Shown piece after piece: positions 9,541 through 63,797 of a stretch of DNA of 64,000 nt. A program made the translations under genes and the position numbers. How positions within the stretch are numbered: position 1 is the first letter of the stretch; each line of letters begins with the position of its first letter. Origin of the DNA: an uncultured Lachnospiraceae bacterium (GTDB lineage Bacteria > Bacillota > Clostridia > Lachnospirales > Lachnospiraceae); assembly GCA_934352055.1 (NCBI GenBank), contig CAKRJY010000009.1:34207-98206 (forward strand), given 5' to 3'. The notes under the pieces are model-generated. The model was not told the origin of the DNA. It did no database searches and saw only the letters and a program-made list of their open reading frames with translations.

Positions 9541-9565
9541 AAAATATATTTACCTTTCATGAACT

Positions 9566-23996: not shown

Positions 23997-25130
23997 CTAT
24001 ATTTCTAAATATCCTATCTTGCGAAAATAATCTATATATCCACTAATATACTTTATATCTGTTTCATTCCATTCAAAACCAACTTTTCTTAGGAACCACA
24101 GTGTAAATTTATTTTCTATACGGATATTACTGTCATATACCAACCTGCCTTGTTCATCCATATCATTCTGAAATGCTTCAAAGATATACTCTGTATTACT
24201 TTGTTTCATCGTCTCCTGAAGTGCGCAATTGAACTCTGCTCCACTTACCACTTTCATAGGTATTCCAAGTTCGTGCACCACCTCTAGGAATCGGTTAAAA
24301 TGTATGACTTTATCACTATTCAGATGAAATACACATTGCTTATCTGCATACTGCGCAATCTTAACGATACCCTCTGCTGTCTTATCAATCGGTGAAAATT
24401 CTGCATACAATGGTATCAGATAATTAGGGAATAAAGAAAATTCCAAGATTGCTTTTACTCTGGTAAGAAAGGCATTCGATGTATAGTTTGGTTGGAACTT
24501 ATAATCACTTGCACGATTCGTCAAATTTCCTACACGAATGACCTTTGCATTTAAACCATCTAACATGGCATCATATACTTTTCGTTCCGCTTCAAATTTG
24601 CTACGAATATATACATTATCCAAAGGCTGCCCAATATAAAATGATGTCTCACAAAAGAATTTTTCCTCATCAGAACGATAGACGGTAAAATCATCTGCCA
24701 TACTATTTCCACTCACACTAAGTGTTGAAATATGTATCAGTTTTGCTCTCATCTTTTTGGCATACTCTATGACATGTGATGTTCCCTCTGTATTTACTCT
24801 GTGAAAATAACTATATGATCCATAATGCTTTACACTGGCTGCTGTATGTATTACAGTCTGCACATCTGAAGGCATTTCATCAGATAATCCTTCTTTTTCA
24901 ATATCACCAATGATAGGAATAATCCTCTTATTTATCTCAGATACATACCTATCTCCAAAATAATATTGAAGAATTTCTTTTAAACGCCCGCGTCTGTCAT
25001 CCGCCTGATCACCTCTGATAAGACAATATATCTTTCCGTTTTCCTTCTGCATCAACTCATTAAGCACATGTGCCCCAAGAAATCCTGTTGCCCCTGTAAG
25101 AAGTACATTTCCCAAACTTTGCTTCTCAAA
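23997..25130 (-). other. NRPS domain R (NAD(P)H-dependent thioester reductase), approximate bounds
   Basis: Rossmann motif TGATGFLG and YxxxK (YIRSK). It is the last domain of the protein. Confidence 0.7.
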
Positions 25131-41425: not shown

Positions 41426-41565
41426 TACAATTTCTTCTTTCTTTTTTGTTTCCTATTCATTTTCGCAACTTTAATCATACCAAAAATCTCATTCTTTGTA
41501 TAGAAGCGGTTCACATTTATGCATGCTTTGCATAGGCTATTAAAAACATGTGCAAAGGATTTCTC

Positions 41566-42630
41566 ATGTCAAAAACCATCATTATAGATCCTGGTCACGG
41601 CGGTTTTGACCCCGGTGCCGTCTATGAAAACCGAAAAGAAAAAGACGATAACTTGAGATTAGCCCTGGCTGTCGGTCAGGAATTACAAAACGCAGGATAC
41701 CAGATTATCTACACACGTACCGATGACCGCTATGATTCGCCTTACGATAAAGCGCAGATTGCAAATTCTGCCGGTGGAGACCTGTTCCTATCCTTCCACC
41801 GTAACTTTGCAGAGACGCCAGATCTTTATCGGGGCGTGCAGGCTCTTGTGTATGACAAGAATCCATTGGCGCTGCGCGTTGCTAAAAATGTCAACGAAGA
41901 ATTGGAATCCATCGGTTTTAAAAATCTTGGCATCGAATCCCGCAAAGAACTTGTCGTATTGCGCCGTACATCCATGCCCGCTGTTTTACTGGAAGTAAGT
42001 TTTATTAATTCCGTGGATGACAACCGGTTGTTTGACGAAAAATTTGATGCAATTGCAAATGCCATCGCCACAGGCGTAGAACGTGCACTTCCTATTACCA
42101 AATCCAAAGAGACATCTGCATCTTCTATGCCACCAGACGATACCATGGCTTCTACGCCTATGCAGCAAAATGATACCACGGCTTCTATGTCCATGCAGCA
42201 AAACGATGCCACGGCTTCTATGTCCATGCAGCAAATTGATGCCACGGCTTCTATGTCCATGCAACCGGACGATACCATGGAATCTATGCGCACATCGCAA
42301 AGTTCTGATGCAAACCCTCTCGCTTCTATGCGCCGCTGCTTAACCGATCATCCATGCGATCTGGATCCGCTGCCAAAACCGGAAGACGCTCCACGTTTCT
42401 TATATTATGTACAGGTTGGTCTGTTCCGTTATCCTGAAAATGCCGTTTATCTTATGCAACAGCTTAACGCCCAGGGATACTCTACTGTCTGGAAACGCAT
42501 AGGCGGTCTGATTGCCATCTGGGTCGGTCCGGTTGACAATTTGGATGAAGCGGTTCGTTTACAACGCAAACTGCAAAACGACGGTTACGAGACCTTAATC
42601 GTAACCGATGACTATATTGCACGTAAATAA
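41566..42630 (+). CDS. N-acetylmuramoyl-L-alanine amidase (Amidase_3) with an 11-aa tandem-repeat linker and a C-terminal SPOR domain
   Basis: IIIDPGHGGFDPGA...LSFHRN...AVLLEVSFINS, then a repeat linker, then YYVQVGLFRYPENAVYLMQQLNAQGY...IWVGP...EAVRLQRKLQNDGY (SPOR-like). Confidence 0.8.
   Translation: MSKTIIIDPGHGGFDPGAVYENRKEKDDNLRLALAVGQELQNAGYQIIYTRTDDRYDSPYDKAQIANSAGGDLFLSFHRNFAETPDLYRGVQALVYDKNPLALRVAKNVNEELESIGFKNLGIESRKELVVLRRTSMPAVLLEVSFINSVDDNRLFDEKFDAIANAIATGVERALPITKSKETSASSMPPDDTMASTPMQQNDTTASMSMQQNDATASMSMQQIDATASMSMQPDDTMESMRTSQSSDANPLASMRRCLTDHPCDLDPLPKPEDAPRFLYYVQVGLFRYPENAVYLMQQLNAQGYSTVWKRIGGLIAIWVGPVDNLDEAVRLQRKLQNDGYETLIVTDDYIARK
42118..42279 (+). repeat. five tandem 30-33-bp units encoding A-S-M-S-M-Q-Q-N-D-A-T-like repeats
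   Basis: Units fall at 42118, 42148, 42181, 42214 and 42247. Units 2-4 are nearly identical (gcttctatgtccatgcagcaaaacgatgccacg). Confidence 0.85.
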
Positions 42631-44105: not shown

Positions 44106-46970
44106 TTATAGGGTAAATTTATCGATAAAGACTGCTTTTTCCTGTTTTATATTGTTAAAAGTCTGTTGTATTTTCTGCCGACAGATAGGCTCTTCATACC
44201 AAAGAGACTGTTCCATCAAACCACCTTCCTGCTCCGTTTTTTTGTGATAATTTTCCTCGTCAATGCGCCGGATCACAATTGCGTTGGTATCACAATACTT
44301 TCCCTGGTAGATGCCGCCTTCTGTAATGCCAATCTTAATCAAACGCTCTGTGCGATTTCCAACACCATCTTGTGCAATGTAACGCGCCGTAATATACCCC
44401 ATATCACCCAATTGCAGAAGTACCTCTTTTGCAGGAAGTTCCACCTTCTTTATAAGCGATTCCCCATCTTCTGCATCTGTCATTTTTGCTGTTCGAAGCA
44501 ATTCTTCCTCCATCACACAACCATTTTCTACTTCTTCCTTGGAAAAATAGCGATTATGTGCTTCTATCTGCGGCGGCGCATCCCAGACACTGTAAAAGAC
44601 TACATCTGCGAACTTTCCATTACTGCCGACTTCTTCTTTTCCTTCCCGAAGTAAAGTCATTTCCCACTGCGTAAGGTCAAAAGCTGCGCCGCAGCCTCGT
44701 ACATCTGCATCCCGATAAATTGCATCCGGGCGCATTGCCCAACCCGTATGCGTATATATCTTTTTCTGCTGTTCTTCTTTTTCAAAATTAGCATCGTAGA
44801 CCGTATTTACTTCCTGCCGTTCAAACGTATTTTGCGGCAAAATAACACTTCCCACGCAATCACGCAGCACATAATCCTCGCCTGCACTTTGTGCGTTACC
44901 ACAGATTTGCACATCGCCAACCACCTCATATTGTGCATAGAAACGGTAGTCCCGCACACTTTCTGCGCCTGTAAATGTCCGTTCTGTTCCCACATTCCAC
45001 TCACTTGGATGCGCAAGTGCTTCTCTACTCCATCCCACTTGTCGCAGGGCATAAAAATCCTTGCCGTCATAATAGACTTTTACCGCCGGTGCATACAGTG
45101 CCTGCGTTTCTTTCCAGAATAGCTGCTGTACCTCCGGCAAAGAAAAGGTCACGTGCGCATTGACGATATTCCCATCAAATGTCACATTATAATATTCCGA
45201 TGCTACAATCTGACCAACCGGTGCATTTTCTCCCGTTCCTGCACGCAGAACTGCCGCACGATATCCCTGCCCTTGATTCGTTACCGTCGTTGTATACGCA
45301 TTGGTTAGTCGAAATCTGCTTTTCATCTGATCTGCAGCGTCGCGCGTCGGATGATAAGCACACCATACCACCAATCGCCCCGGCTGCGGTTTTTCTTCTT
45401 CTAACGTAATGGGAATTGCCGTATAATTTCCAGTCAATTCTCCTACCAGTGTCAACTGACGGTCTTTTGCCAGCCAGATTCCACTTCCTGAAATATTAAC
45501 ATCTCCGCTGCATTGATACTCGCCTTTTTGTTCCACATCATACTTTGTGTTTTTCCGGATAACGCCTCCTTTTTGTATTATGCACGCGCCGTCCCCATTT
45601 TCAATGCCTACTTCATTATCCAAAACCTCATTCTCTGACATTGTAATGGTACCGCTATTTATAATCCCGGTTTTGTTGTTTCGAATGTGTGATGTGCGCA
45701 CTTCTCCCACTGGTCGATTAAAAAATCCATTACTGATTCCTGTCGTATTTTCATAAATATCACAATCCTCGAGCAGATAAGCCTTTGCTGCCTGCCCTGT
45801 TGTCACAAATACACCTGCTAAACTCTTCATTAACTTTGTATTTTTTATCTCAATACAATTATTTGCATTTGCCCACAGACCACAGTTTGCTCCCTGACTC
45901 ACACAATCCGCAGCGCTTCCACTTGCACTTCCCATATAGGATATGCCTGCGCCTCCGTACATAAATTTATTTTGATCGTATCGATTGGCATTCGCATCAC
46001 AATGATTCAGATACATAGCCGCATCTATTGTCATAAATCCCCAGGAAGAGTCATACGCCTTGCAATTATCGCAGGAAATCGTAGCTCCGCATCCATCCGT
46101 GTTGCGTACAAAAAAAGCTGCGCCATCGCAATTAAAAGCCACACAATTTCGAAAAACGCCCTTGGCAGAACGTCCCGAGCCATCTTCAGAAACTATATTA
46201 AATCCAGTTCCACCACCTAAATGATCTACACCACTATATCCCACATTCCAGTTATTGCATACGGTCGTATCCGTTCCATACCATGTGGAGTTGATACAAT
46301 CCACCACAGAAGAGCCACCCTCCTGCGCTGTACCATTGTTTCTATGACAGTTTCCATTCAATGTAAGGTTTCCTTCGGTAATTAACGTCGAACCATTTTG
46401 TACCACAATCATAGGTCCGGGATTTTCCATGTCATTGATGAGCTGATGTCCGTTCCCACGGATTGTATAGCTTCCCCCATCTGTAATCATCCAATTCGAT
46501 TTCATCGCAACATCACTTACAAGGATCAACTTTCTTGCGTGATATTGAAACACACCGATAATCATATCCCATTGGGAAGCACATCTCCAGTAGTCTCCAT
46601 CCCAGCCACCACCAGATCGTGCCGCTTGTCTGCTGAGTAAAGCATTCTCTTCTACTTCCAACATACATGCTTCTATCTCTGATTCGCTGTCTTCTTCCTT
46701 TTCTGTCTCATCTTCTCCCAAAGTCACCTTCTCCGACTCATTTTTCTCGGTTTCTGTGTTTTCATTGTTTCCCTTCTCTTTTTCTTGCTTCTTTTCTTCT
46801 ATCTTTTTCTCTTCTTTTTCCTGCACCTCTTCTATGTCTGCATGCCCGCTTTCCTCTATATTATCTATATTCTCAACAGCATTGACCGTAACTGTCTGCC
46901 CTAAAATCATGATGATCATGAAAATTGCTGTTGTCATCTTCTTTATTTTATTTATGTAGTTTCTCTTCAT
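44106..46970 (-). CDS. secreted 954-aa Cys-rich protein with a predicted right-handed beta-helix and C-terminal Ig-like (DUF5011-type) domain; last gene of the filament operon
   Basis: Sec signal (...TVNA/VEN) and an E/K-rich acidic tract. Repetitive N/G/C-rich turns (NGNCHRNNG, NCVAFNCDGAAFFVRNTDGCGATISCDNCKAYD, CDANANRY, ANANNCIEIKNT). C-terminal DAPPQIEAHNRYF...TDAEDG...IAQDGVGN. No sorting signal. GGAGGG RBS. Confidence 0.6.
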   Translation of the reverse strand: MKRNYINKIKKMTTAIFMIIMILGQTVTVNAVENIDNIEESGHADIEEVQEKEEKKIEEKKQEKEKGNNENTETEKNESEKVTLGEDETEKEEDSESEIEACMLEVEENALLSRQAARSGGGWDGDYWRCASQWDMIIGVFQYHARKLILVSDVAMKSNWMITDGGSYTIRGNGHQLINDMENPGPMIVVQNGSTLITEGNLTLNGNCHRNNGTAQEGGSSVVDCINSTWYGTDTTVCNNWNVGYSGVDHLGGGTGFNIVSEDGSGRSAKGVFRNCVAFNCDGAAFFVRNTDGCGATISCDNCKAYDSSWGFMTIDAAMYLNHCDANANRYDQNKFMYGGAGISYMGSASGSAADCVSQGANCGLWANANNCIEIKNTKLMKSLAGVFVTTGQAAKAYLLEDCDIYENTTGISNGFFNRPVGEVRTSHIRNNKTGIINSGTITMSENEVLDNEVGIENGDGACIIQKGGVIRKNTKYDVEQKGEYQCSGDVNISGSGIWLAKDRQLTLVGELTGNYTAIPITLEEEKPQPGRLVVWCAYHPTRDAADQMKSRFRLTNAYTTTVTNQGQGYRAAVLRAGTGENAPVGQIVASEYYNVTFDGNIVNAHVTFSLPEVQQLFWKETQALYAPAVKVYYDGKDFYALRQVGWSREALAHPSEWNVGTERTFTGAESVRDYRFYAQYEVVGDVQICGNAQSAGEDYVLRDCVGSVILPQNTFERQEVNTVYDANFEKEEQQKKIYTHTGWAMRPDAIYRDADVRGCGAAFDLTQWEMTLLREGKEEVGSNGKFADVVFYSVWDAPPQIEAHNRYFSKEEVENGCVMEEELLRTAKMTDAEDGESLIKKVELPAKEVLLQLGDMGYITARYIAQDGVGNRTERLIKIGITEGGIYQGKYCDTNAIVIRRIDEENYHKKTEQEGGLMEQSLWYEEPICRQKIQQTFNNIKQEKAVFIDKFTL

Positions 46971-46985: not shown

Positions 46986-47579
46986 TTACTTAAAAAAAGC
47001 ATAGTAATCTTGTGTCGTCACAACATTTTTGGGAAAAGCTGCCTCTTTCCATTCCGCTTCTGTCATCGACCATCCCACAAACGTCTGACCTTGTTTCACC
47101 GGTGTATCCGGAAGCAAAAAGGAGCTTCCCTCTGCCACCTCATATGCCTGCCATAGCTTTCCATCCACAAAAAAGGATACGGTACAATTCTCTTTTTCCT
47201 TTTTTTGATCAATCACTGCCGTCTGTGTCACACTGCAGGTTCCCTTTTTCCCATTCGGATGTAAAAAGGTCTCCGTCACACGCACGGACAACAGACCTTT
47301 TTCCATATCCATTCCGTAAATCTCCACCTGAATACCTCCAGATGTTTTCATTCCCTTTAGCTGTTTCTTCAAACGTGCACAAAATTGTTTTTGCCATTTG
47401 GCTTCATCCACGTTTTCCTGTCCCTTTTCCCATGTTTCTTTCATCGTTGCATCTACTGCCAATGTCACTGCTTCTCTAAGCGTATGCTCCCTGTCAACAC
47501 GCCCTTCCACCGTCAAAACCATCACAACAGACAATACCAGCAGCGCACAACTTACGATTCCATAGATAATGTATTTCAT
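46986..47579 (-). CDS. pilin-like protein (197 aa) with an N-terminal hydrophobic helix and a C-terminal Listeria-Bacteroides (Flg_new) repeat
   Basis: MKYIIYG-IVSCALLVLSVVMVLTV. C-terminal VSFFVDGKLWQAYEVAEGSSFLLPDTPVKQGQTFVGWS...DYYAFF. Confidence 0.55.
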   Translation of the reverse strand: MKYIIYGIVSCALLVLSVVMVLTVEGRVDREHTLREAVTLAVDATMKETWEKGQENVDEAKWQKQFCARLKKQLKGMKTSGGIQVEIYGMDMEKGLLSVRVTETFLHPNGKKGTCSVTQTAVIDQKKEKENCTVSFFVDGKLWQAYEVAEGSSFLLPDTPVKQGQTFVGWSMTEAEWKEAAFPKNVVTTQDYYAFFK

Positions 47580-47596: not shown

Positions 47597-48076
47597 TCAG
47601 TCTTCGACGCGTATGTATAAATAGCCGTATTCTGTCGCCCCAGACGCATCCCACAGTTCTACCTTAGCGCGATACACACCGCTATGTGAAAACACATACA
47701 TTTCCTGTTGTTCTTCTGTTATAATCTTATCCACACTGGTGCCGTCTTTCCTATCCTCCATGTCAAGAATCCTGACAAACGCTTCTTGTCCGTCTGCGTC
47801 CGTCACCACAAGCATATCTTTTATGCTGTATGCTTTGTTCGTATGCAGCGTATGACTGCACACCGTTGGAACGGCACGCCGCTTAATTGCATGTAATACA
47901 TCTGTAGACTGCAACACAGGTTCTGTTACATCCATCTGCTGTTTTATGTGTCTGCTTAATACTTCCCGCATTTCTCGTGCATCTGCATGTTGCATGTAGT
48001 AAAATGCTGCAAGCAGCATGCCACAAATCATAACTGCCAGACATGTTTTCCCATAGTTTCTGATAACCTCCGTCAT
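47597..48076 (-). CDS. pilin-like protein (159 aa)
   Basis: MTEVIRNYG-KTCLAVMICGMLLAAFYY shares the N-terminal signature of the small ORFs. It is followed by a soluble domain. Confidence 0.55.
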   Translation of the reverse strand: MTEVIRNYGKTCLAVMICGMLLAAFYYMQHADAREMREVLSRHIKQQMDVTEPVLQSTDVLHAIKRRAVPTVCSHTLHTNKAYSIKDMLVVTDADGQEAFVRILDMEDRKDGTSVDKIITEEQQEMYVFSHSGVYRAKVELWDASGATEYGYLYIRVED

Positions 48077-48085
48077 GTATCCCCC

Positions 48086-48226
48086 TTATCCCATCATCTG
48101 TAATAGTGCCAACATTAAACTTTCTCCCATCAGCCCCCGCAAATCCCCCCAGAACAAACCCACCAAAAGAACGGCTGTTACAACTGCAAATAACATTTCT
48201 CCATATTCTTCCAACACATCTTTCAT
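48086..48226 (-). CDS. small Flp-like pilin candidate P3 (46 aa), not in the ORF track
   Basis: MKDVLEEYGEMLFAVVTAVLLVGLFWGDLRGLMGESLMLALLQMMG. AAGGGGG RBS. 9-nt gap to the next gene. Confidence 0.55.
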   Translation of the reverse strand: MKDVLEEYGEMLFAVVTAVLLVGLFWGDLRGLMGESLMLALLQMMG

Positions 48227-48247
48227 GTCTTTTCTGCCCCCTTTTTC

Positions 48248-48352
48248 TTATATACTAAGCATCCCAATAGTTCTCAAAAAGATGCCACAGATTCCGCCGC
48301 CAACCACGGCATAAAATAATGCCATTCCATAATCCTGCATAATTTCCTTCAT
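48248..48352 (-). CDS. small Flp-like pilin candidate P2 (34 aa)
   Basis: MKEIMQDYGMALFYAVVGGGICGIFLRTIGMLSI. These are the last 34 codons of track ORF 48248..48520. An AAAGGAA RBS follows directly after the stop of the 111-aa gene. Confidence 0.5.
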   Translation of the reverse strand: MKEIMQDYGMALFYAVVGGGICGIFLRTIGMLSI

Positions 48353-48365: not shown

Positions 48366-48701
48366 TCACCATAATTCTGCATGGAGCACTCTCGTATTTT
48401 CCAAATCAAAAAATGGCATTCCATATACATACGTGAGCGCAACATTTCCGTATGCAGCCCTCTCTTTTCCTGCAGGTGTACTCCATTCCACCTGCAAATC
48501 ATAATTTTGTGTTTTTGCATCCGCCTGACACGCCTCTACCACATTCTTGGCATAATGCGATGCTTCCATGCGTTCCACACAGGAAGATAAAAAAGAATCT
48601 GCATTACGCGATGCAACCGATGCCGACGTAATTCCAATCCCGGTTACCGTCAAAAGCAGCAAACAAAATATTCCAATAAAAGACTTTACAATAACTTCCA
48701 T
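48366..48701 (-). CDS. pilin-like / TadE-like protein (111 aa)
   Basis: MEVIVKSFIG-IFCLLLLTVTGIGI, then a soluble domain. GGGAGG RBS. Confidence 0.5.
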   Translation of the reverse strand: MEVIVKSFIGIFCLLLLTVTGIGITSASVASRNADSFLSSCVERMEASHYAKNVVEACQADAKTQNYDLQVEWSTPAGKERAAYGNVALTYVYGMPFFDLENTRVLHAELW

Positions 48702-48713: not shown

Positions 48714-50051
48714 CTATACACCAAGCGCACTTGTTGCCATCATGGCATAAAAGAGCATTCCCATATCCACAAGCATCTTCGCGCCACCCGTCAGCTGCGG
48801 TGCTAAAAACAGCGCATAGAGTCCTCCGAGCGCATCCTCATTTTTCATCTTTTGCGCCTGGTCTAACAGTAATTGATTTCGCCGTATAATGTCACTGATC
48901 TGATTATTCGCATTTCCTCCCGTTCCTTCTGATAATGCATAAAGCATTTTCATCGACGATTGCACCTCCGGCAAAGCATATTCCTGTAAAAATTCCAGAT
49001 ATGGCTCCATATCGGTAGGTCGCAGCTGCAGCTTTTGTATCAATTCACGCAAAGCCGGCTTCATCAATACCGGTGCCTCATCATAGGATTCCATAATCGC
49101 CACCTGTACATTTTCACTCTGTAACAGTAAAGACACTTCCAGTAACCACTGTGGAAACATCTTTTGCAGAGCACGCGATACATTTTTCTTTGCAATTCGC
49201 GTACCTAACTCTGCATGTTTTTTCTCTTCACTACGTTTTACTTTTTCATATTGGCGCAGCAGTTCTTTTTCATCGTATGTTTCATCCATACTTTCCATAG
49301 AAAGTTTGCGATCAGCTACATAAAAAATCCAAATATCTAATAGCAACGTTAAAAGCGTCACCACCTTTACAATCGTAAATCCAGTAATCGATAATGATAC
49401 GCGTTCTGCCACATAGACAAAGACGGAACACAGCAAAAGCGAAACCAGCACAGAAATCAAAATCTGTGTTCGTTTTCGTTTCTTTTCTTTTAACAGCTCA
49501 TACGAGCGGTCTGCCCACATTCGTCTGGCATCTAGCATCAAGCGGATTGCCTCTCCATATTCGCCACCTTTCTCCTCTACCTGCAGCGCAAAACGATGTA
49601 TCATTGCCACATGATGTATCGGATATTCCTGCTCAATCATTGCCAATGCCTTTTTCTCAACATGATCTTCATCATAGGTATCCTCAATATAGGCAATGGC
49701 TTCCTGAATGCGCGTATGCATCATACCGTCTGCAAACAATTTCTCTACATCTTTTAATGTCACAAGAATTTTTCCTGATTTCTGAAAAGAATATAAAAAT
49801 TGTTCCATGTAACTATTGATTTCCACAAACTGTCTCTGCCCATAGCGATTGCGGTACAAATTGCGCAGAAAAAACGGAAATAAACATGCGCACCACAGAC
49901 AAAGAATGAGCAGATACATGCGTTCTAATCGGAAAAACTTTCCGCACAATAAGGCAAATGCTACCGCCATCCCATACATCAAAATGCTTCTTTTTACCGA
50001 AAAGACATAGCCATATCTTTTCAATTCATCCCACAGCAACTTTGGTTTCAT
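48714..50051 (-). CDS. polytopic platform protein with two T2SSF-like halves (TadB-TadC-fusion / FlaJ-like)
   Basis: 445 aa. Two repeats of a cytoplasmic helical bundle plus TM pair. The second half reads FPQWLLEVSLLLQSENVQVAIMES, like the T2SSF LPxxLxxLxxxLxAG..L..A motif. The start overlaps the ATPase gene by 26 nt. Confidence 0.55.
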   Translation of the reverse strand: MKPKLLWDELKRYGYVFSVKRSILMYGMAVAFALLCGKFFRLERMYLLILCLWCACLFPFFLRNLYRNRYGQRQFVEINSYMEQFLYSFQKSGKILVTLKDVEKLFADGMMHTRIQEAIAYIEDTYDEDHVEKKALAMIEQEYPIHHVAMIHRFALQVEEKGGEYGEAIRLMLDARRMWADRSYELLKEKKRKRTQILISVLVSLLLCSVFVYVAERVSLSITGFTIVKVVTLLTLLLDIWIFYVADRKLSMESMDETYDEKELLRQYEKVKRSEEKKHAELGTRIAKKNVSRALQKMFPQWLLEVSLLLQSENVQVAIMESYDEAPVLMKPALRELIQKLQLRPTDMEPYLEFLQEYALPEVQSSMKMLYALSEGTGGNANNQISDIIRRNQLLLDQAQKMKNEDALGGLYALFLAPQLTGGAKMLVDMGMLFYAMMATSALGV

Positions 50052-51063
50052 AATACGTTCCCCTCCTTTGCTCCAAATTATCTCCGATCAGTTCTCCGTC
50101 CTCGACAATACTCTCTACACGGTTAATGCCATCTTCTCGCGTAAAGAAACACACCTGATCAATAAAACGACGTATGTGCTGTCGTCCCGCAGTATCCGTT
50201 TCACTCCGCCGCCTCACCATAATCCCCACATCAATAAAGGAATAAATATCATTTTCCATGCGTCCGGCATCTCGTTCCGAGCCTGCCATATTAAGCATCC
50301 GATCTGGAATTTTTCTCACATCCGAAGTATGCAGTGTCGTGATACCATGTACGCCTGTACTTAGACATTCCATCAGATAAACTACTTCTTTCGAACGTGT
50401 CTCCGACAGCATAATCCACTTTGGATTCAAACGCAGACACGTCTTAATTGCCTGTGTGTAATCCATCTGCCGATTCACACGCAATTCTAAGCAATCATGC
50501 GACGGATGTAAGCTTTTAAAATGCCATTCCATCGTATCTTCAATCGTAATCACACGTTCGTCCCTAGGAATAAATCCGGACAAGAACTTGCATAATTCGG
50601 TTTTGCCCGCTCCCGGTTCTCCCACTACAACGATATTTTTGTGTTCTTCTACGCAATGCAATAACAGGTCTAACACTTCTTTACTGCAATAGGCATCTGC
50701 AATCATCTGTCTTTCATCCAGTCGCACATATGGAAGCGATTTACGGATACAAATGCTGCGCCCACTCATACAGACAGACTCATGTACAATCGTAATACGC
50801 AGACTTGCTGTCTCCGCTTCTAATATGGGATTCTGGCGGTTAAATGCTTTACTGACACCATTTGCTACACGTCCTGTAAACTGATCAATAAAACTTTCCG
50901 TCAACTGTAAATCCGGACATACATGGCGACAATTGTTACTATCTGTAAGCCACACCTCCCGCCCGTTATAATCCACATCTGTAATATCATCATCAATGAT
51001 GTACGGATATAATGGCCCGAAAAAATCACCTGTTTTATCTAAAAAAAGCATCTGTTCTGCCAT
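50026..51063 (-). CDS. TadA/CpaF/VirB11-type secretion ATPase (T2SSE superfamily), short form
   Basis: 345 aa. Walker A VVGEPGAGKT. Also ERVITIEDTMEW, LRLNPKWIMLSETRSKE (Walker B/Asp box region) and STGVHGITTLHTSD (His box). Confidence 0.75.
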   Translation of the reverse strand: MAEQMLFLDKTGDFFGPLYPYIIDDDITDVDYNGREVWLTDSNNCRHVCPDLQLTESFIDQFTGRVANGVSKAFNRQNPILEAETASLRITIVHESVCMSGRSICIRKSLPYVRLDERQMIADAYCSKEVLDLLLHCVEEHKNIVVVGEPGAGKTELCKFLSGFIPRDERVITIEDTMEWHFKSLHPSHDCLELRVNRQMDYTQAIKTCLRLNPKWIMLSETRSKEVVYLMECLSTGVHGITTLHTSDVRKIPDRMLNMAGSERDAGRMENDIYSFIDVGIMVRRRSETDTAGRQHIRRFIDQVCFFTREDGINRVESIVEDGELIGDNLEQRRGTYYETKVAVG

Positions 51064-51072: not shown

Positions 51073-51237
51073 TTATAGTGCATTTTTTGTAAAGAAATAC
51101 GTTAGTAACTGTGCAAATGCCTTTCCCACAACACTGTTTTGATCACTACCAATCAGTGTCGAAACCAAAATCAACATCGCTCCAATCACAACGACGGTAA
51201 TCATTGCCGGTCCATATTCTTTTATAATATCTTGCAT
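51073..51237 (-). CDS. small Flp-like pilin candidate P1 (54 aa), first gene of the operon; not in the ORF track
   Basis: MQDIIKEYGPAMITVVVIGAMLILVSTLIGSDQNSVVGKAFAQLLTYFFTKNAL. Its stop lies 9 nt before the ATPase ATG, inside that gene's GGGGGA RBS. Confidence 0.55.
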   Translation of the reverse strand: MQDIIKEYGPAMITVVVIGAMLILVSTLIGSDQNSVVGKAFAQLLTYFFTKNAL

Positions 51238-51345
51238 AATTTGTTATCCTTTCTTTTCCTGCAAAAGGACATAAAGCAAATATCTGCGGAATAAGTAGGC
51301 GAATCGCCTTTGAAAAAAGATGCCATCCAAAAGATGGTGAGATTG

Positions 51346-51374
51346 ATACTAACAGCACTGCTAACATTTTGCAA
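51346..51374 (-). promoter_or_regulatory. possible promoter of the filament operon
   Basis: Minus strand: TTGCAA, 17 nt spacer, TAGTAT. About 110 nt upstream of P1. Confidence 0.3.
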
Positions 51375-51425
51375 GTACTTTTTGAATTGTTTTAAAAGTT
51401 CGAAAACTATGAATTTTTATTTCCC

Positions 51426-51454
51426 TTTACAGAGCTTAGCATATCGCCTATAAT
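51426..51454 (+). promoter_or_regulatory. sigma-A promoter of ppiB
   Basis: TTTACA, 17 nt spacer, TATAAT. About 40 nt upstream of the ATG. Confidence 0.55.
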
Positions 51455-51495
51455 ACGTTTCACAGAGATTTTTTAGAAAGACGAGGTATTTTCAT

Positions 51496-56523: not shown

Positions 56524-56916
56524 TTATGAATACAATTCCTTATAAATAGCATCCAGATCATAGTCTGGTGCATATTTCTTGCCAACATCATAAACTCTTT
56601 GGACTTCGGCAACATCCATATCAAAGAAATCTGCTATCTGACTCGTACTTTTTCCTCGGTTCATCTGTTGCATGATTACAGAAATCACATTCTGTCTGCG
56701 CCCTGCTTTGAGTCCCTCTGCTCGTCCTTCTTCGCGTCCTTCCGCACGTCCTTCTTCCAGACCCTGATTATGGTATATTCTCTTCAGTAGTTCTTTTTCT
56801 TCATATGCTCTCATATAACTCAGCCCTACCTTTCTGTTATCCTTTATCTGAGATACCATGCTCTGTAATTCCCGCAAGTCTTCCGTCACTGCGTTTTCGT
56901 CTGTGGATTCTTCAAA
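56524..56916 (-). pseudogene. 5'-truncated tandem duplicate of the adjacent Rpn-like gene (C-terminal third only)
   Basis: Encodes FEESTDENAVTEDLRELQSMVSQIKDNRKV...YDLDAIYKELYS, near-identical to residues about 200-321 of the 56945..57910 product, plus an extra EGRAEGREEGRAEG insertion. No upstream coding sequence. Confidence 0.7.
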
Positions 56917-56944: not shown

Positions 56945-57910
56945 TTATGAATACAATTCCTTATAAATGGCATCCAGATCATAGTCTGGTGCATATTTCT
57001 TGCCAACATCATAAACTCTTTGGACTTCAGCAACATCCATATCAAAGAATTCCGCTATCTGACTCGTACTTTTTCCTCGGTTCATCTGTTGCATAATCAC
57101 AGAAATCATCTGCTGTCTGCGTCCTGCTTTGAGTCCTGCTTCGCGTCCTTCTTCCAGACCCTGATTATGGTATATTCTCTTCAGTAGTTCTTTTTCTTCA
57201 TATGCTCTCATATAACTCAGCCCTACCTTTCTATTATCCTTTATCTGAGATACCATGCTCTGTAATTCCCGCAAGTCTTCCGTCACTGCGTTCTCGTCTG
57301 TGGACTCTTCAAAATATGTAAGAAATTTCCGTAAATCTTCAGAGTAATTCCCAACACTACCCTTCGTATATAAGAAAATCGTCATTGCTCCATCCTCATA
57401 TTCCATATCCGGTTGCTCGACACAGTAATTCTTAATTGTGTAAACCATCCGGTTATATCCAAAGGGATCAAATGGGGTAATGAAAATCACATATACTTTT
57501 TTTAGTTTCCGATAATCCTCTCCACTGGGAAGCGCTGCATTATCAATCTTCGCATGGTAAAATCGAACTCGCTTTGGGAGTCCTTCTACTGATATTGTAT
57601 CATGATTTTTCTCAGGTTCAATATCAAAAATCGAAGAATCATCCTCGATAATCTGCGCCATTTCTTCTGTTTTTCCATCTGGGCTCACCGTCTCTTCAAT
57701 ATACACATCCAATCTGGCGCCGTGCATATCGGTGTCCACTCCATAAAACACCTTTTGCGGTGTGATCTGAATGTCTGCTATTTCTTTTCCTAAAATAAGT
57801 TTAATCAACTTCCTTGAAAAAGGAATACCTACGTCTGGGTCCGTCATCATTGCACCAAATAAAAAGTTGTCAATCAGACTTAAGTCCTGCAAAGTTTTCT
57901 TTTGCTTCAT
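56945..57910 (-). CDS. Rpn-family (PD-(D/E)xK, TIGR01784-like) recombination-promoting nuclease / putative transposase
   Basis: 321 aa. N-terminus LIDNFLFGAMM... and GARLDVYIEE...IFDIEPEK nuclease-like motif. C-terminal EEGREAG repeats typical of this family. Confidence 0.65.
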   Translation of the reverse strand: MKQKKTLQDLSLIDNFLFGAMMTDPDVGIPFSRKLIKLILGKEIADIQITPQKVFYGVDTDMHGARLDVYIEETVSPDGKTEEMAQIIEDDSSIFDIEPEKNHDTISVEGLPKRVRFYHAKIDNAALPSGEDYRKLKKVYVIFITPFDPFGYNRMVYTIKNYCVEQPDMEYEDGAMTIFLYTKGSVGNYSEDLRKFLTYFEESTDENAVTEDLRELQSMVSQIKDNRKVGLSYMRAYEEKELLKRIYHNQGLEEGREAGLKAGRRQQMISVIMQQMNRGKSTSQIAEFFDMDVAEVQRVYDVGKKYAPDYDLDAIYKELYS

Positions 57911-58200: not shown

Positions 58201-59586
58201 TTACTGAAGTAATGAAAGAACACCCTGTGTAGACTGGTTAGCCTGAGCAAGCATTGACTGTCCTGCCTGTGTAAGAATGTTATTCTTAGAGTACTTAACC
58301 ATTTCATCAGCCATATCTGTATCGCGGATACGTGATTCAGCAGATGTTGTGTTTTCAACAACGTTATCCAAGTTGTCGATTGTGTGCTCAAGACGGTTCT
58401 GGATAGCACCAAGGCTAGATCTCTGATCTGAAACCTTCTGTAATGCATCGCTGATAGCATCGATTGCATATGTTGCAGCCTTACCTGAATCATCAGATAC
58501 GTTTAATCCCTGAATTCCTAAGTATGCAGAATTCATTGTCTCGATATTTACATTAATCTTATTTGTCATGTCTGCATCAGAACCTACATGAAGATTGAAG
58601 GACAACTGCTGTGCTGCATCTGCTTTTCCTTTAGTGATTTCAAATGTTACACCCGTATCCTTTGCATAAGTTCCAGCTTGAATTGTTGCTGCTGTTTTTG
58701 TTGCACCAATGTTGTTAGCTGCTGTCAGCTCAGCTGTCATAAGTCCAACTGCCTTCGCTGCAGAAATAACAGATGAATCTGACTTATCAACACCTGTTGC
58801 ATCAAAATCTGCTACTGTCATAGATTTTCCGCCAACTTCTACTGTTGCACCAGCTTTAACAAGCTTTTCTAATTCAGATTTTTTATACTTGAAATCAGCT
58901 TCGCTATGATTAGCATCTTCCACCAAGGTGTATTCTTGTCCATTAATCTTTGCTTTTACTGTTCCATCATAAGTATTTCCAAGTAATGCCTTTGCATCTG
59001 CTTCTGTTGCACCAATTGTATAGTTCTTTCCACCAATTGTAACAGCTTTTCCTGGATCAAGTGCACCAGCAGCAACCTTGAATGTTCCTGTTGTTTCGCC
59101 ATCTGTTAAAGTTCCCTTTAATCCAGCATCATGAGCCTTCATGTACACTTCTTTTGTTGCAGCATTATCATCACCCTTCAACAAGTATGTCTCGTTGAAC
59201 TTTGTTGTTTCAGCAACACGATCGATTTCTGTTGTTAACTGCTCAATCTCTGACTGGATAGCATCTCTATCTGTCTGTGAGTTTGTTCCGTTAGAAGCCT
59301 GTACTGAAAGTTCGTTCATTCTCTGAAGCATTGAGTGAACTTCTGTCAAAGCACCTTCAGCTGTCTGTACTGCAGATACACCATCCTGTGCGTTTGTAGA
59401 AGCCTGATCAAGACCACGAATCTGCTTACGCATCTTTTCAGAAATAGAAAGACCTGCTGCATCATCTGCTGCGCGGTTAATTCTATAACCTGAAGAAAGT
59501 TTCTCTGTTGACTTAGCCTGCTGACCTGCTGTAATGTTAAGCATTCTTGAGGCATTTGCTGCCTGCATATTGTGTTGAACAACCAT
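58201..59586 (-). CDS. flagellin (461 aa)
   Basis: MVVQHNMQAANASRMLNITAGQQAKSTEKLSSGYRINRAADDAAGLSISEKMR... N-terminal D0/D1 region and C-terminal ...LGAIQNRLEHTIDNL...SMLAQANQSTQGVLSLLQ. Confidence 0.95.
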   Translation of the reverse strand: MVVQHNMQAANASRMLNITAGQQAKSTEKLSSGYRINRAADDAAGLSISEKMRKQIRGLDQASTNAQDGVSAVQTAEGALTEVHSMLQRMNELSVQASNGTNSQTDRDAIQSEIEQLTTEIDRVAETTKFNETYLLKGDDNAATKEVYMKAHDAGLKGTLTDGETTGTFKVAAGALDPGKAVTIGGKNYTIGATEADAKALLGNTYDGTVKAKINGQEYTLVEDANHSEADFKYKKSELEKLVKAGATVEVGGKSMTVADFDATGVDKSDSSVISAAKAVGLMTAELTAANNIGATKTAATIQAGTYAKDTGVTFEITKGKADAAQQLSFNLHVGSDADMTNKINVNIETMNSAYLGIQGLNVSDDSGKAATYAIDAISDALQKVSDQRSSLGAIQNRLEHTIDNLDNVVENTTSAESRIRDTDMADEMVKYSKNNILTQAGQSMLAQANQSTQGVLSLLQ

Positions 59587-60868: not shown

Positions 60869-60919
60869 CCATGAAAAACGGATTTTTCATGGGGACAAAC
60901 CAAAACAAACACACGGAGG
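60869..60919 (+). promoter_or_regulatory. flagellin 5' leader: 10-bp hairpin with a GGA loop plus a GGA-containing SD (CsrA-type sites)
   Basis: ccatgaaaaa-CGGA-tttttcatgg (60869-60892) and acaCGGAGGt (60914-60919). Confidence 0.45.
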
Positions 60920-60927
60920 TAAATATT

Positions 60928-62439
60928 ATGGTTGTTCAACACAATATGCAGGCAGCAAATGCCTCAAGAATGCTTAACATTACAGCAGGTCAGCAGGCTA
61001 AGTCAACAGAGAAACTTTCTTCAGGTTATAGAATTAACCGCGCAGCAGATGATGCAGCAGGTCTTTCTATTTCTGAAAAGATGCGTAAGCAGATTCGTGG
61101 TCTTGATCAGGCTTCTACAAACGCACAGGATGGTGTATCTGCAGTACAGACAGCTGAAGGTGCTTTGACAGAAGTTCACTCAATGCTTCAGAGAATGAAC
61201 GAACTTTCAGTACAGGCTTCTAATGGAACAAACTCAAAGACAGATAGAGATGCTATCCAGTCAGAAATTGAACAGTTAACAACAGAAATCGATCGTGTTG
61301 CTGAAACAACAAAGTTCAACGAAACATACCTTTTGAAGGGTGATGCTGATGGCAAAAAGTCTTCTACAACAATCAATGCACATGATGCCGGCTTAAAGGG
61401 AACTTTAACAAATGTTGGTACAGGAACAGCTACTTTCAAGCTTGATAAAGAATTAGCAAATGATGACAAGGTAACGATTGGTGGTAAGGAATATACGATT
61501 GATACTACTAAGGCAGATACAGCTGTTGTAAAGCAGCCAACAAGTGCTGCAATCACACAAGAAACTGCAGGTGCAGCTGGCGCTAAAGCCAAATACAAAC
61601 TTGATTTGGCTGGTATGACAAGTACAGCCGGTGATGTAACCTTTAATATTGGCGGCAAAGATTATAAAGTAACTGTTGCTGCCGGAGATGATGCTGCTGC
61701 AATCGCAGGAAAATTAAAAGCAGCATATGCCGCTGATGAAATTACCGCTAATGCAACTGCCGGCAAATACAAGGCAACTGCTACTGGCACTGCTATCACA
61801 TTTGAAGCGGAAAATAATGGTGTCATTGCAGCTGGTGAAGCATTAACAGGAACAGCTACAATCGCTGCAGTAGAAAATGGCACAAATGAAATCAGTATAA
61901 ATGATGCTTACAACATGATGGCTAAAGAGTTGGAAACAGCTAGCAGCCTTGGAGCAGATACTGGTGCTACCGTAACTAATAACGGCAATGGTTCTTTCAC
62001 CATCGCTGAAGGAAGTGCTGCTATCACAGCTTCCTTGTCTTTCAACTTGCATGTTGGTTCTGATGCAGATATGACAAACAAGATTAATGTTGATATCAAC
62101 ACAATGAATTCTTCATATCTTGGAATCAAAGGATTAGATGTTTCTGATAAGACAGGTACAGCTGCAACATATGCAATTGATGCTATTGCTGATGCTTTAC
62201 AGAAGGTTTCTGATCAGAGATCTAGTCTTGGTGCTATCCAGAACCGTCTTGAGCACACAATCGACAACTTGGATAACGTTGTTGAAAACACAACCTCTGC
62301 TGAATCACGTATCCGCGATACAGATATGGCTGATGAAATGGTTAAGTACTCTAAGAATAACATTCTTCAGCAGGCAGGACAGTCAATGCTTGCTCAGGCT
62401 AACCAGTCTACACAGGGTGTTCTTTCATTACTTCAGTAA
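60928..62439 (+). CDS. flagellin (503 aa)
   Basis: True start is MVVQHNMQ at 60928; the track ORF begins upstream at 60871. The first ~120 and last ~95 residues are near-identical to the left flagellin. The central ~290 residues are unrelated and A/T/G-rich. Confidence 0.95.
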   Translation: MVVQHNMQAANASRMLNITAGQQAKSTEKLSSGYRINRAADDAAGLSISEKMRKQIRGLDQASTNAQDGVSAVQTAEGALTEVHSMLQRMNELSVQASNGTNSKTDRDAIQSEIEQLTTEIDRVAETTKFNETYLLKGDADGKKSSTTINAHDAGLKGTLTNVGTGTATFKLDKELANDDKVTIGGKEYTIDTTKADTAVVKQPTSAAITQETAGAAGAKAKYKLDLAGMTSTAGDVTFNIGGKDYKVTVAAGDDAAAIAGKLKAAYAADEITANATAGKYKATATGTAITFEAENNGVIAAGEALTGTATIAAVENGTNEISINDAYNMMAKELETASSLGADTGATVTNNGNGSFTIAEGSAAITASLSFNLHVGSDADMTNKINVDINTMNSSYLGIKGLDVSDKTGTAATYAIDAIADALQKVSDQRSSLGAIQNRLEHTIDNLDNVVENTTSAESRIRDTDMADEMVKYSKNNILQQAGQSMLAQANQSTQGVLSLLQ

Positions 62440-62843: not shown

Positions 62844-63797
62844 ATGAAGCAAAAGAAAACTTTGCAGGACTTAAGTCTGATTGACAACTTTTTATTTGGT
62901 GCCATGATGACGGACCCAGATGTTGGCATTCCCTTTTCAAGGAAGTTGATTAAACTTATTTTAGGGAAAGAAATAGCAGACATTCAGATCACACCGCAAA
63001 AGGTATTTTATGGAGTGGACACCGATATGCACGGCGCCAGATTAGATGTGTATATTGAAGAGACGGTGAACCCGGATGGGCAAACAGAGGAAATGGCGCA
63101 GATTATCGAGGATGATTCTTCGATTTTTGATATTGAACCTGAGAAAAATCATGATACAATATCAATAGAAGGACTTCCTAAGCGAGTCCGGTTTTACCAT
63201 GCGAAGATAGATAATGCAGCACTTCCTAGCGGAGAGGATTATCGGAAACTCAAAAAGGTATATGTGATTTTCATCACACCATTTGATCCCTTTGGATATA
63301 ATCGGATGGTTTACACAATCAAAAATTATTGTGTCGAGCAACCGGATATGGAATATGAGGATGGAGCAATGACAATTTTTTTATATACGAAGGGAAGCGT
63401 TGGGAATTATTCTGAGGATTTACAGAAATTTCTCACATACTTTGAAGAGTCCACAGACGAAAACGCAGTGACAGATGACTTGCGGGAATTACAGAGCATG
63501 GTATCTCAGATAAAAGATAACAGAAAGGTAGGACTGAGTTATATGAGAGCATATGAAGAAAAAGAACTACTGAAGAGAATATACCATAATCAAGGACTGG
63601 AAGAAGGACTCGAAGCAGGGCGCAGACAGCAGATGATTTCTGTGATCATGCAACAGATAAACCGAGGAAAAAGTACGGGTCAGATAGCAGAACTCTTTGA
63701 TATGGATGTTGCTGAAGTTCAAAGAGTTTATGATGTTGGCAAGAAATATGCACCGGATTATGATTTAGATGCCATTTATAAGGAATTGTGTTCATAA
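62844..63797 (+). CDS. Rpn-family (PD-(D/E)xK, TIGR01784-like) recombination-promoting nuclease / putative transposase
   Basis: 317 aa. More than 95% identical by eye to the 56945..57910 product. Confidence 0.65.
   Translation: MKQKKTLQDLSLIDNFLFGAMMTDPDVGIPFSRKLIKLILGKEIADIQITPQKVFYGVDTDMHGARLDVYIEETVNPDGQTEEMAQIIEDDSSIFDIEPEKNHDTISIEGLPKRVRFYHAKIDNAALPSGEDYRKLKKVYVIFITPFDPFGYNRMVYTIKNYCVEQPDMEYEDGAMTIFLYTKGSVGNYSEDLQKFLTYFEESTDENAVTDDLRELQSMVSQIKDNRKVGLSYMRAYEEKELLKRIYHNQGLEEGLEAGRRQQMISVIMQQINRGKSTGQIAELFDMDVAEVQRVYDVGKKYAPDYDLDAIYKELCS

Follow-up and report, generated by a model that had tools for sequence, protein, structure and literature searches.

The window, that is, the whole 64-kb stretch of DNA analyzed here, carries a tight nine-gene operon on the minus strand (51237-44106), whose genes overlap or are separated by gaps of 9-21 nt. 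The operon encodes, in order, the small protein P1, a CpaF/VirB11-type ATPase, a 445-aa membrane protein, a 111-aa protein, the small proteins P2 and P3, and proteins of 159, 197, and 954 aa. The features of the locus are listed below in the direction of the operon.

51238 to 51495, no strand: intergenic region between the operon and a divergently transcribed cyclophilin gene, defined by the gene layout
51073 to 51237, minus strand: P1, 54 aa, the first operon gene and candidate major subunit
50026 to 51063, minus strand: ATPase, 345 aa, T2SSE superfamily, CpaF/VirB11/archaeal clade, assigned from Pfam and NCBIfam matches
48714 to 50051, minus strand: 445-aa all-helical polytopic membrane protein, candidate fused TadB/TadC-type platform with weak T2SSF-like matches
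48366 to 48701, minus strand: 111-aa protein found in 25 of 30 loci, a candidate for a minor subunit, whose N-terminus follows the variant M-x-x-[IV]-x-K-x-[FY]-x-(G)
48248 to 48352, minus strand: P2, 34 aa, the motif MKEIMQDYG and a transmembrane helix only
48086 to 48226, minus strand: P3, 46 aa, in which the motif MKDVLEEYG precedes a transmembrane helix and a short tail
47597 to 48076, minus strand: 159-aa protein, MTEVIRNYG, a transmembrane helix, and a C-terminal domain of ~110 aa, with the same N-terminal module
46986 to 47579, minus strand: 197-aa protein, MKYIIYG, a transmembrane helix, and a Listeria-Bacteroides-repeat-like C-terminal domain, present in 22 loci
44106 to 46970, minus strand: 954-aa secreted protein with a Sec-type signal peptide, the last operon gene, candidate cargo or adhesin

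The first 26 nt of the 445-aa gene are shared with the end of the ATPase gene, and the 954-aa gene begins 15 nt past the 197-aa gene. Judged from the layout of the genes alone, the operon promoter presumably lies within the intergenic region, in which a simple consensus scan revealed no strong promoter on the minus strand. The operon is flanked by housekeeping genes for cyclophilin, an ECF transporter, a CNNM/CorC protein, and an amidase, as well as by an anaerobic ribonucleotide-reductase-like housekeeping gene. About 30 related loci were found in Lachnospiraceae, with ATPases 97-47% identical to that of the window; the locus is syntenic across genera and has the same chromosomal surroundings in other genera. 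VirB4, VirD4/T4CP, VirB6/8, and relaxase genes, the co-location of which is the context feature of VirB/D4-type T4SSs, and other conjugation genes were not found near the operon. A conjugative T4SS was therefore rejected.

All three small ORFs were found at the coordinates given in the original prediction, on the minus strand, and each is preceded by a ribosome-binding site of the AGGA/GGGGG type 7-10 nt upstream. P1 consists of MQDIIKEYG, a transmembrane helix of ~22 residues, and a short conserved tail (IG..D..VG.AF..L...FF), and P2 corresponds to the last 34 codons of a 90-aa ORF (48520-48248), which in turn overlaps the 111-aa gene in a different frame. The reading frames are conserved in the ~30 Lachnospiraceae loci: a P1-like ORF lies directly upstream of the ATPase gene in 28 of the 29 homologous loci having upstream DNA and is kept in the minimal three-gene loci L016 and L028, and P2/P3-like ORFs of 32-51 aa occur downstream in ~24 loci. 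P1, P2, and P3 are real genes under purifying selection, with dN/dS values of 0.02-0.06, 0.009-0.27, and 0.19-0.54, respectively, compared with 0.03-0.13 for the ATPase; P1 is the most conserved. An HMM search of 1.84 billion proteins yielded 183 representatives of the P1 family at E <= 1e-3. No Pfam or NCBIfam family matched P1, P2, or P3. The small ORFs had been called unannotated, which does not hold for public data, where exact P1 and P3 and a 44-aa version of P2 are already predicted on many contigs (the exact P3 sequence on 70), either nameless or as 'hypothetical'. The conserved start of P2 is the motif Met, whereas the 44-aa gene calls use an upstream ATG instead.

When the six reading frames of the window were searched for the strict motif M-x-[DE]-[IV]-φ-x-x-Y-G with a hydrophobic stretch after it, four matches were obtained, namely P1, P2, P3, and the 159-aa protein, and none was obtained in 100 dinucleotide-preserving shuffles. 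A looser pattern added the 197-aa protein and one 24-aa chance ORF. The claim that six operon proteins share one signature accordingly stands for the four strict matches, whereas the 111-aa and 197-aa proteins carry looser variants: in the 111-aa family, K6 was present in 32/35 and F/Y8 in 35/35 sequences with Gly10 in just 18/35, and the 197-aa family kept Y-G in 9/21 sequences only. The motif was confined to the operon within the window, and the idea of a generic feature of the small membrane proteins of this genome was rejected.

In the P1 family, motif position 1 was a start codon in all 135 motif-bearing representatives (M 131, L 3, and V 1). The gene calls started exactly at the motif in 110 of them, and in the remainder, M, L, or V stood in frame at this position after extensions that were not conserved. 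Y8 and G9 were each present in 131/135 sequences at a fixed spacing from the start, and the non-Gly residues at position 9 were Ala or Ser. Position 7 was E in 77 and Q in 48 of the 135 sequences, and Pro occupied position 10 in 28, including P1 of the window. The N-terminal stub had a net charge of -1 and no basic n-region in 116/136 sequences, a median of 22 uncharged residues followed the EYG-type motif, and a Gly-ending leader was not present in any P1 relative. Across the family, this one N-terminal module was joined to C-terminal parts of 0 to >500 residues, and in three relatives these parts included LRR_5 domains, which are leucine-rich repeats of the BspA type (best E 2.4e-33). A double-glycine bacteriocin leader, which the Y-G-G present in approximately half of the family might suggest, was rejected on the basis of a misfit at position -4, the lack of a C39/ABC transporter, the G-P in P1 of the window, and the occurrence of the same N-terminus on proteins of 159-531 aa.

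The ATPase matched Pfam T2SSE with 74.2 bits (cut-off 24.9), placing it among the PilB/GspE/TadA/FlaI-family ATPases of the TFF superfamily; the class III signal peptide of that superfamily, with its basic leader, was not found on the candidate subunits of the operon, which have either no leader at all or an acidic one of 9 residues with Tyr at -2. The best NCBIfam matches of the ATPase were VirB11, TadA-type, and FlaI, and the NCBI label of a member of its cluster is 'CpaF/VirB11 family protein'. Against solved structures, the ATPase scored 78 bits with VirB11, 71 with CpaF, 64 with archaeal GspE, and 32 with PilB. By these sequence scores, it is equally close to VirB11 and CpaF and more distant from PilB/GspE.

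The identity of the 445-aa protein as a platform is suggested by several partial likenesses. Its homologues matched T2SSF below the threshold (best 16.1 bits, cut-off 25.2; best E 0.011), in some cases across nearly the whole domain (profile 14-124 of 125), and hhalign aligned it with the platform-position protein of the pXO1 Tad locus over 188 columns (E 2.8e-4, probability 41%). No homology was detected by hhalign with E. coli HofC. The AF2 model of the protein had a pLDDT of 82, and its sole Foldseek match with a probability >0.9 was PilC (3jc8_Ca), which was not significant. All 281 of its sequence homologues are named 'hypothetical'. Foldseek returned nothing below E 0.06 for the models of the platform and the 111-aa protein; therefore, no pilin or PilC fold is claimed for them, and only their secondary-structure plan is used. 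When the P1, 111-aa, and platform families were used as profiles against sequences from the PDB, the searches found no pilin and gave noise only (SecG, AnkX, and K+ channels).

The AF2 model of the 111-aa protein (pLDDT 79.5) comprises a helix at 2-47, a helix at 52-64, and a three-stranded sheet, and it had no significant pilin match in Foldseek. DUF4320 (PF14208) was rejected for this protein as a weak and nonrecurrent match (13.6 bits versus a cut-off of 25, in 1/16 members). Analogues of the 159-aa protein, 139-374 aa in length and alike at the N-terminus, occur in most loci, and a weak PKD match was the only one of the 159-aa protein in Pfam. The 197-aa protein matched Flg_new, an extracellular-type repeat, with an E value of 5.6e-6 and 26.8 bits (cut-off 27). 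The 954-aa protein had no Pfam match; conserved counterparts of its C-terminal part occur in the large proteins encoded downstream in 13 loci, and in one locus (L008), a 197-like module is fused to a C-terminus like that of the 954-aa protein.

In line with the original prediction that the peptidase is missing, the G-x-G-D-x-K peptidase signature was absent from ~0.5 Mb comprising the window and 30 loci, Peptidase_A24 was not found among the multi-pass membrane ORFs of the window, and no A24 peptidase lay beside three further loci. An A24 peptidase could be encoded elsewhere in the genome, outside the window. Every curated pilin model failed on P1, P2, and P3. PF04964 (Flp_Fap) did not match these proteins of the window at E <= 1 and was missing from the 25 families that recurred most often in a scan of 102 P1 relatives. 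Among the same relatives, 6/102 had weak, sub-threshold matches to DUF4244, the Tad prepilin family of bifidobacteria and actinobacteria (best E 6.5e-4), and 3/102 had sub-threshold Flp1_like matches (best E 0.56).

Flp pilins carry a class III leader that ends with Gly at -1 and is cut by TadV/FppA/CpaA (G/XXXXEY); their mature N-terminus has Glu5-Tyr6 and then ~20 hydrophobic residues. The operon is like the Tad/Flp (type IVc) systems in having a candidate major subunit within 45-60 residues with one hydrophobic helix and a short tail, in the [E]-Y-G/A directly before the hydrophobic stretch (Flp motif taken from PMC10710030 and PMC3244431), in putative minor subunits that carry the N-terminal module, in an ATPase of the CpaF/VirB11/archaeal clade with the candidate platform gene next after it, and in the DUF4244 matches. 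However, the operon subunits are without a leader and without Gly at -1, E/Q-Y-G occupies positions 7-9 of the primary product rather than 5-7 of the processed Flp, and the acid is often Gln, so the likeness to Flp is one of [E/Q]-Y-G plus helix only. The locus is also without TadV, TadZ, and CpaB/RcpC, and it has a single candidate platform of 445 aa, probably fused, instead of separate TadB and TadC.

Clostridial 'tad-like' loci without a recognizable prepilin motif have been described in C. kluyveri, C. cellulolyticum, C. bolteae, C. sp. L2-50, and D. hafniense (Imam et al. 2011, PMC3244431). Compared by description, these loci are like the operon in that they have a Tad-type ATPase and no class III signal peptide protein was found. 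In contrast, tadV, tadZ, and rcpC homologues are reported there and none is present in the operon, and neither leaderless pilin candidates nor the N-terminal motif were described for them.

Genes 36-41 of the pLS20 family of Bacillus plasmids (PMC8557374) have the same order as the operon: a 126-aa N-terminal-TM protein, an ATPase, two membrane proteins, a 120-aa N-terminal-TM protein, and TM proteins of ~47 aa. Their ATPases were the closest among 72,556 plasmids (34.5% identity), and their 47-48-aa TM proteins (three tandem copies in pDSYZ) are likewise without a Gly-ending leader. Unlike the operon, this module lies inside a T4SS operon with VirB4, VirD4, and VirB6, its platform is split over two genes, and the EYG motif is lacking. 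No homology was detected by hhalign between the platform and 111-aa families and their pLS20-family counterparts. The operon system may be evolutionarily linked to the uncharacterized genes 36-41 of the Gram-positive pLS20-type conjugation operons.

Archaeal class III leaders are basic, have K/R (or D/E) at -2, and depend on FlaK/PibD. Archaeal type IV pili, from whose Epd-like members the Tad systems are thought to be derived (PMC6668835), are like the operon in their short leaders, in not requiring Glu5, and in the small residues after the cleavage site. They are unlike it with respect to the invariant Tyr at the would-be -2, the acidic stub, and the lack of a linked peptidase.

These results support the general idea that the small proteins belong, as pilin-like subunits, to a TFF/Tad-like system that has no prepilin peptidase linked to it. 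As the best, still tentative explanation, with slightly less than an even chance of being right, we propose that the products of the nine genes make up a minimal and divergent type IV filament machine of the Tad-like kind, with leaderless subunits. Small bitopic proteins would be pulled out of the membrane by the CpaF/VirB11-clade ATPase and the fused TadB/C-like platform, which would polymerize them via their common N-terminal helix. P1 would be the major subunit, P2, P3, and the proteins of 159, 111, and 197 aa would serve as minor or tip subunits, and the 954-aa secreted protein would be presented via the 197-aa protein. The subunits would be made without a class III leader, and their mature N-terminus would be the initiator Met of M-[KQ]-[ED]-[IV]-φ-x-[EQ]-Y-G; a prepilin peptidase would therefore be unnecessary.

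The role of P1 as the major subunit is suggested by its position as the first gene, its conservation, its retention in the two minimal loci, its Flp-type size and plan, and the weak DUF4244 matches in 6/102 relatives, and a pilin-like design is suggested by the shared N-terminal module with variable, extracellular-type C-domains. The modeled plan of the 111-aa protein, in which a small sheet comes after a long N-terminal helix, also speaks for the proposal. The leaderless reading is supported by the motif at the start codon, the fixed Y8-G9 spacing, the lack of a conserved Gly in the 111-aa and 197-aa classes, and the absence of a peptidase signature from the window and the loci. Filament assembly and the N-terminus of P1 are predicted from the genes alone. 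Several features count against this proposal: the acid is at position 7 and often Gln, several charges of the stub would need to be accommodated inside the filament core, and Gly9 is as invariant as a cleavage-site Gly. The failure of the curated pilin models on P1, P2, and P3, the PDB profile searches without a pilin, and the lack of significant pilin or platform matches in Foldseek also count against it. Glu5 is reported to be absolutely conserved in bacterial T4P (PMC10710030). With regard to leaderless Flp-like pilins, the first of two readings offered originally, the motif at the start codon and the lack of a Gly-ending leader speak for it, whereas the unmatched PF04964 and the acid at position 7 do not. 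Literature searches yielded no published account of such proteins, and no curated family describing them was found; the original statement had been that, to its author's knowledge, neither reading had been described for bacterial TFF systems.

The small proteins might instead be membrane-embedded parts of an ATPase-driven envelope complex rather than filament subunits, for example, of a secretion or anchoring device for the 954-aa protein or of a channel module like pLS20-family genes 36-41, with the shared N-terminus as a motif that docks onto the ATPase or the platform. We consider this unlikely, although VirB11 scored as high as CpaF, P2 is hardly more than a transmembrane helix, no pilin family matched, and the closest plasmid-borne ATPases belong to conjugative plasmids with the same gene order. 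The absence of VirB4, VirD4, and relaxase nearby, the housekeeping flanks, and the synteny across genera argue against such a complex, as does the lack of detectable homology between the non-ATPase proteins and those of the pLS20 family; moreover, one N-terminal helix combined with variable extracellular-type C-domains is a hallmark of pilins.

The second original reading keeps the Tad-like machine and takes residues 1-9 as a short acidic class III leader that is cut after Gly9 by an unlinked A24 peptidase. A leader of 9 residues would fall among the lengths known for type IVa and archaeal leaders. Gly9 is followed by G/P/S, then V/A/I, I/L, I, and T, a succession that presumably resembles the N-termini of mature archaeal pilins. 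Gly9 itself, present in 131/135 sequences and otherwise replaced by Ala/Ser, is typical of the prepilin position -1. Prepilin peptidases are often shared and encoded elsewhere, as is that of the MSH pili (PMC6668835). Nevertheless, this reading is disfavored, and we regard it as distinctly improbable. The leader would be exactly 9 residues long in all paralogues and genomes, its sequence would be more conserved than the supposed mature part, unlike in known leaders, and it would be negatively charged without a basic n-region in 116/136 sequences. Tyr would be invariant at -2, outside the [KRDE] that the archaeal class III pattern (FlaFind) allows there, and Pro would stand at +1 in 28/135 sequences, P1 of the window included. 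Furthermore, no Gly is conserved in the 111-aa and 197-aa classes, and the A24 signature was absent from the window and the 30 loci. Leaderless Flp-like subunits fit the data better than cleavage after Gly9, and even with such cleavage, the leader would be atypical in its acidity, fixed length, and Tyr at -2. The notion that the small ORFs are chance reading frames with coincidentally similar N-termini, which their very small size and the position of P2 inside a longer overlapping ORF might invite, is refuted to near certainty by the frames kept intact across loci whose ATPases are only 47% identical, the dN/dS values of P1 and P2 well below 1, the absence of the motif from the shuffles, and the P1-family representatives found among 1.84 billion proteins.

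To our knowledge, every described type IV pilin has a cleavable leader. FlaFind relies on the N-terminal class III signature. PilFind also relies on an N-terminal signature (PMC3244431), and in reviews and surveys of type IV filaments, the superfamily is defined by the class III signal peptide and the A24 peptidase (PMC6668835 and PMC3244431). At least 183 sequence clusters of signature-less pilin-like proteins would escape such pilin finders. That gut and rumen Lachnospiraceae harbor a widespread filament lineage that assembles its subunits without a class III signal peptide or a prepilin peptidase is a possibility that we hold with some doubt; if true, it would break the rule that A24 leader cleavage is universal and obligatory in the TFF superfamily. 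If filaments form, they would represent an unrecognized class of surface appendage relevant to mucosal or fiber adhesion and a natural test case for why other systems need leader removal. The family is found in abundant butyrate producers of the human gut and rumen; its carriers among gut and rumen Lachnospiraceae include Roseburia, Agathobacter, Pseudobutyrivibrio, and Robinsoniella, with Roseburia lenta NSJ-9 and Robinsoniella peoriensis CCUG 48729 as cultured carriers.

P1, P2 and P3 lie in a compact string of minus-strand genes with intergenic gaps of 9-21 nt and a 26-nt overlap between the ATPase gene and that of the 445-aa membrane protein:

51237-51073 (-), P1, 54 aa
51063-50026 (-), ATPase, 345 aa
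50051-48714 (-), membrane protein, 445 aa
48701-48366 (-), p111, 111 aa
48352-48248 (-), P2, 34 aa
48226-48086 (-), P3, 46 aa
48076-47597 (-), p159, 159 aa
47579-46986 (-), p197, 197 aa
46970-44106 (-), p954, 954 aa

Shine-Dalgarno-like sequences were present for all three small ORFs, and P2 was indeed hidden in a longer frame: it is the last part of a 90-aa ORF that shares DNA with the 111-aa gene in a different reading frame. In a six-frame scan of the window, the strict motif M-x-[DE]-[VI]-[ILMV]-x-x-[YF]-(x)-G followed by a hydrophobic run matched P1, P2, P3 and p159 and nothing else, and it was absent from 100 dinucleotide shuffles. The N-termini of p111 (MEVIVKSFIG) and p197 (MKYIIYG) showed only a loose likeness, and their Gly was not conserved within their own families (18/35 and 9/21 sequences, respectively). 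The original observation is thus right in essence, but the signature described for six operon proteins holds strictly for P1, P2, P3 and p159 and only loosely for p111 and p197.

A genome scan with the window ATPase as the query retrieved 30 Lachnospiraceae loci (identity 97-47%), including Pseudobutyrivibrio, Roseburia lenta, Robinsoniella peoriensis, and rumen and gut MAGs. Motif ORFs did occur beside the T2SSE gene: of the 29 loci with upstream DNA, 28 had a P1-like ORF (MQDI[IL]KEYGPA...) immediately 5' of the ATPase. In the sole exception, L010 (1-800), the ATPase was preceded by non-coding DNA of about 460 nt in place of P1; small motif ORFs were missing downstream as well, and the locus may be decaying. 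Downstream ORFs of 32-51 aa with a P1-type N-terminus were found in about 24 loci, and proteins of 139-374 aa in related loci also began with this motif. In Nei-Gojobori comparisons of the window with five loci, dN/dS was 0.02-0.06 for P1, 0.009-0.27 for P2 and 0.19-0.54 for P3, compared with 0.03-0.13 for the ATPase; the ratios of the small ORFs were thus all below 1, as expected under purifying selection. Their exact sequences were already in public gene calls, every one unnamed or "hypothetical", with P2 mostly given as 44 aa from a non-conserved upstream ATG. Conservation, dN/dS and these calls together indicate that P1, P2 and P3 are real genes; the description "unannotated" applies to their lack of characterisation, not to their prediction.

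Two loci were minimal, comprising only P1, the ATPase and the 445-aa protein (L016, 7733-10419; L028, 7020-9782) directly followed by an unrelated housekeeping gene; the "minor" proteins are all dispensable or encoded elsewhere in these two. A Lachnobacterium contig (L029) carried two complete systems in tandem (2777-8506 and 8525-11854), with more divergent N-terminal motifs in the second.

The ATPase was a T2SSE protein (74 bits; cut-off 24.9), with VirB11, TadA-type and FlaI as the nearest models. Against solved structures, it scored 78 bits with VirB11, 71 with CpaF and 64 with archaeal GspE, PilB/PilT being far at about 32. The 445-aa protein matched no family above threshold, and its database relatives were all hypothetical (281/281). 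T2SSF matches in some homologues were sub-threshold yet covered almost the whole domain, and the family aligned with the protein after CpaF in the pXO1 Tad locus (hhalign E 2.8e-4, 188 columns). Its AF2 model was all-helical (pLDDT 82), and PilC was the sole Foldseek match with a probability above 0.9, although not a significant one. It is treated here as a putative fused platform of the TadB/C type, an assignment that is probable rather than proven. The predicted model of p111 comprised a 46-residue N-terminal helix followed by a short helix and a three-stranded sheet, a plan that is pilin-like as modelled; Foldseek found no pilin among structures. The C-terminal end of p197 carried a near-threshold Listeria-Bacteroides repeat. 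A single 1451-aa ORF in L008 (4683-9038) combined an N-terminal region resembling p197 (E 1e-13) with the conserved C-terminal region of p954 (E 1e-10) in a gene fusion, suggesting that p197 and p954 are functionally linked. None of P1, P2, P3, the platform and p111 is represented by a model in Pfam (2025) or NCBIfam (June 2026).

From 1.84 billion proteins, a profile built from P1 relatives, P2, P3 and the p159 N-terminus recovered 183 representatives at E <= 1e-3. The gene call started exactly at the motif in 110 of 135 motif-bearing representatives; in the other 25, non-conserved extensions preceded a motif whose first position was M, L or V, indicating over-called starts. The consensus of the 135 was M-[K/Q]-[E/D]-[I/V]-[F/I/L/M]-x-[E/Q]-Y-G-[G/P/S], with Y8 and G9 each in 131, and none had a Gly-ending leader. 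The stub before the helix had a net charge of -1 in 116 of 136 sequences, and the hydrophobic part after it had a median of 22 uncharged residues. Tails ranged from zero to >500 residues, and three relatives carried LRR_5 (BspA-type leucine-rich repeat) domains. No curated family model matched the P1 family; DUF4244, annotated as a bifidobacterial Tad prepilin, was weakly matched by 6/102 relatives (best E 6.5e-4).

In its parts, the operon is built like a type IV filament system, with a Tad-clade ATPase, a platform-like membrane protein, one small, abundant-looking subunit encoded first, and several further proteins that have nothing in common but the N-terminal helix module and of which some bear domains of an extracellular type. 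The hydrophobic helix preceded by [E/Q]-Y-G has a parallel in the Flp motif, E5-Y6-G7 (PMC10710030, PMC3244431). A leaderless, unprocessed subunit is favoured over a cleaved 9-residue leader because the motif begins with the start codon and keeps its spacing in all paralogues and genomes, the stub carries an acidic charge, and the co-operonic p111 and p197 classes lack a conserved Gly. Cleavage after Gly9 by a peptidase encoded elsewhere in the genome is a less likely possibility, which the near-invariance of this residue speaks for and which the scope of the peptidase searches, covering the window and related loci, allows. Within that scope, Peptidase_A24 was not found among the window's multi-pass membrane ORFs, the G-x-G-D-x-K active-site signature was in no real ORF of the window and the 30 loci, and three further loci, in which T2SSE was the sole Pfam match inside the operon, had no peptidase in the 10-kb flanks on each side. 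The original interpretation is partly supported, with the leaderless reading favoured; Flp family membership was rejected, as neither the defining leader nor a family-model match was found when both were tested.

A third option, a non-filament membrane complex, is suggested by a similar organisation in pLS20-family conjugation operons, where genes 36-41 are unexplained and the ATPases were the closest among plasmids. The conjugation operon of pDSYZ, a pLS20-family plasmid (L031, 6367-10407), matched the window in gene order: an N-terminal-TM protein, a CpaF/VirB11 ATPase, two membrane proteins, a 120-aa N-terminal-TM protein and small ORFs, the last being three in tandem of 47-48 aa (MLDQNTDRMYWVIGAVLVVG...) and, as in the window, without a Gly-ending leader. 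The pLS20-family counterparts of these genes are all "unknown" (PMC8557374). However, the remaining operon proteins had no detectable homology to these counterparts, and conjugation genes are absent here. In contrast, the pXO1 Tad-like locus, with CpaB, a TadZ-like protein and CpaF, encoded two proteins of 67-68 aa that have a classical leader (L032, 9827-10309; ...SSENG|MLIALAV). The operon of the window fits best among Tad/TFF systems, as a variant of them.

Imam et al. described clostridial tad-like loci in which no protein has a prepilin motif; these have tadV, tadZ and rcpC, and candidate subunits were not proposed (PMC3244431). Even the "generic" model of Denise et al. needs a recognisable pilin (PMC6668835). 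In full-text literature searches, neither leaderless pilins nor the M-x-[DE]...Y-G motif turned up.

Elsewhere in the window, two divergently oriented flagellin genes (58201-59586, -; 60871-62439, +; Flagellin_N and Flagellin_C, E 1e-45) indicate that the organism is flagellated besides having the putative filament system. Around them lie two near-identical 317-321-aa genes (56945-57910, -; 62844-63797, +) without a Pfam match and a truncated third copy corresponding to the C-terminal part (56524-56889, -), a set suggestive of a repeated element that is mobile or prone to recombination. A 2430-aa non-ribosomal peptide synthetase (23997-31289, -), with two each of condensation, adenylation and carrier domains plus a terminal reductase, is encoded upstream of several large secreted Ig-domain proteins, and an Amidase_3/SPOR cell-wall amidase (41548-42630, +) contains internal near-identical "MQQNDxTASMS" repeats.
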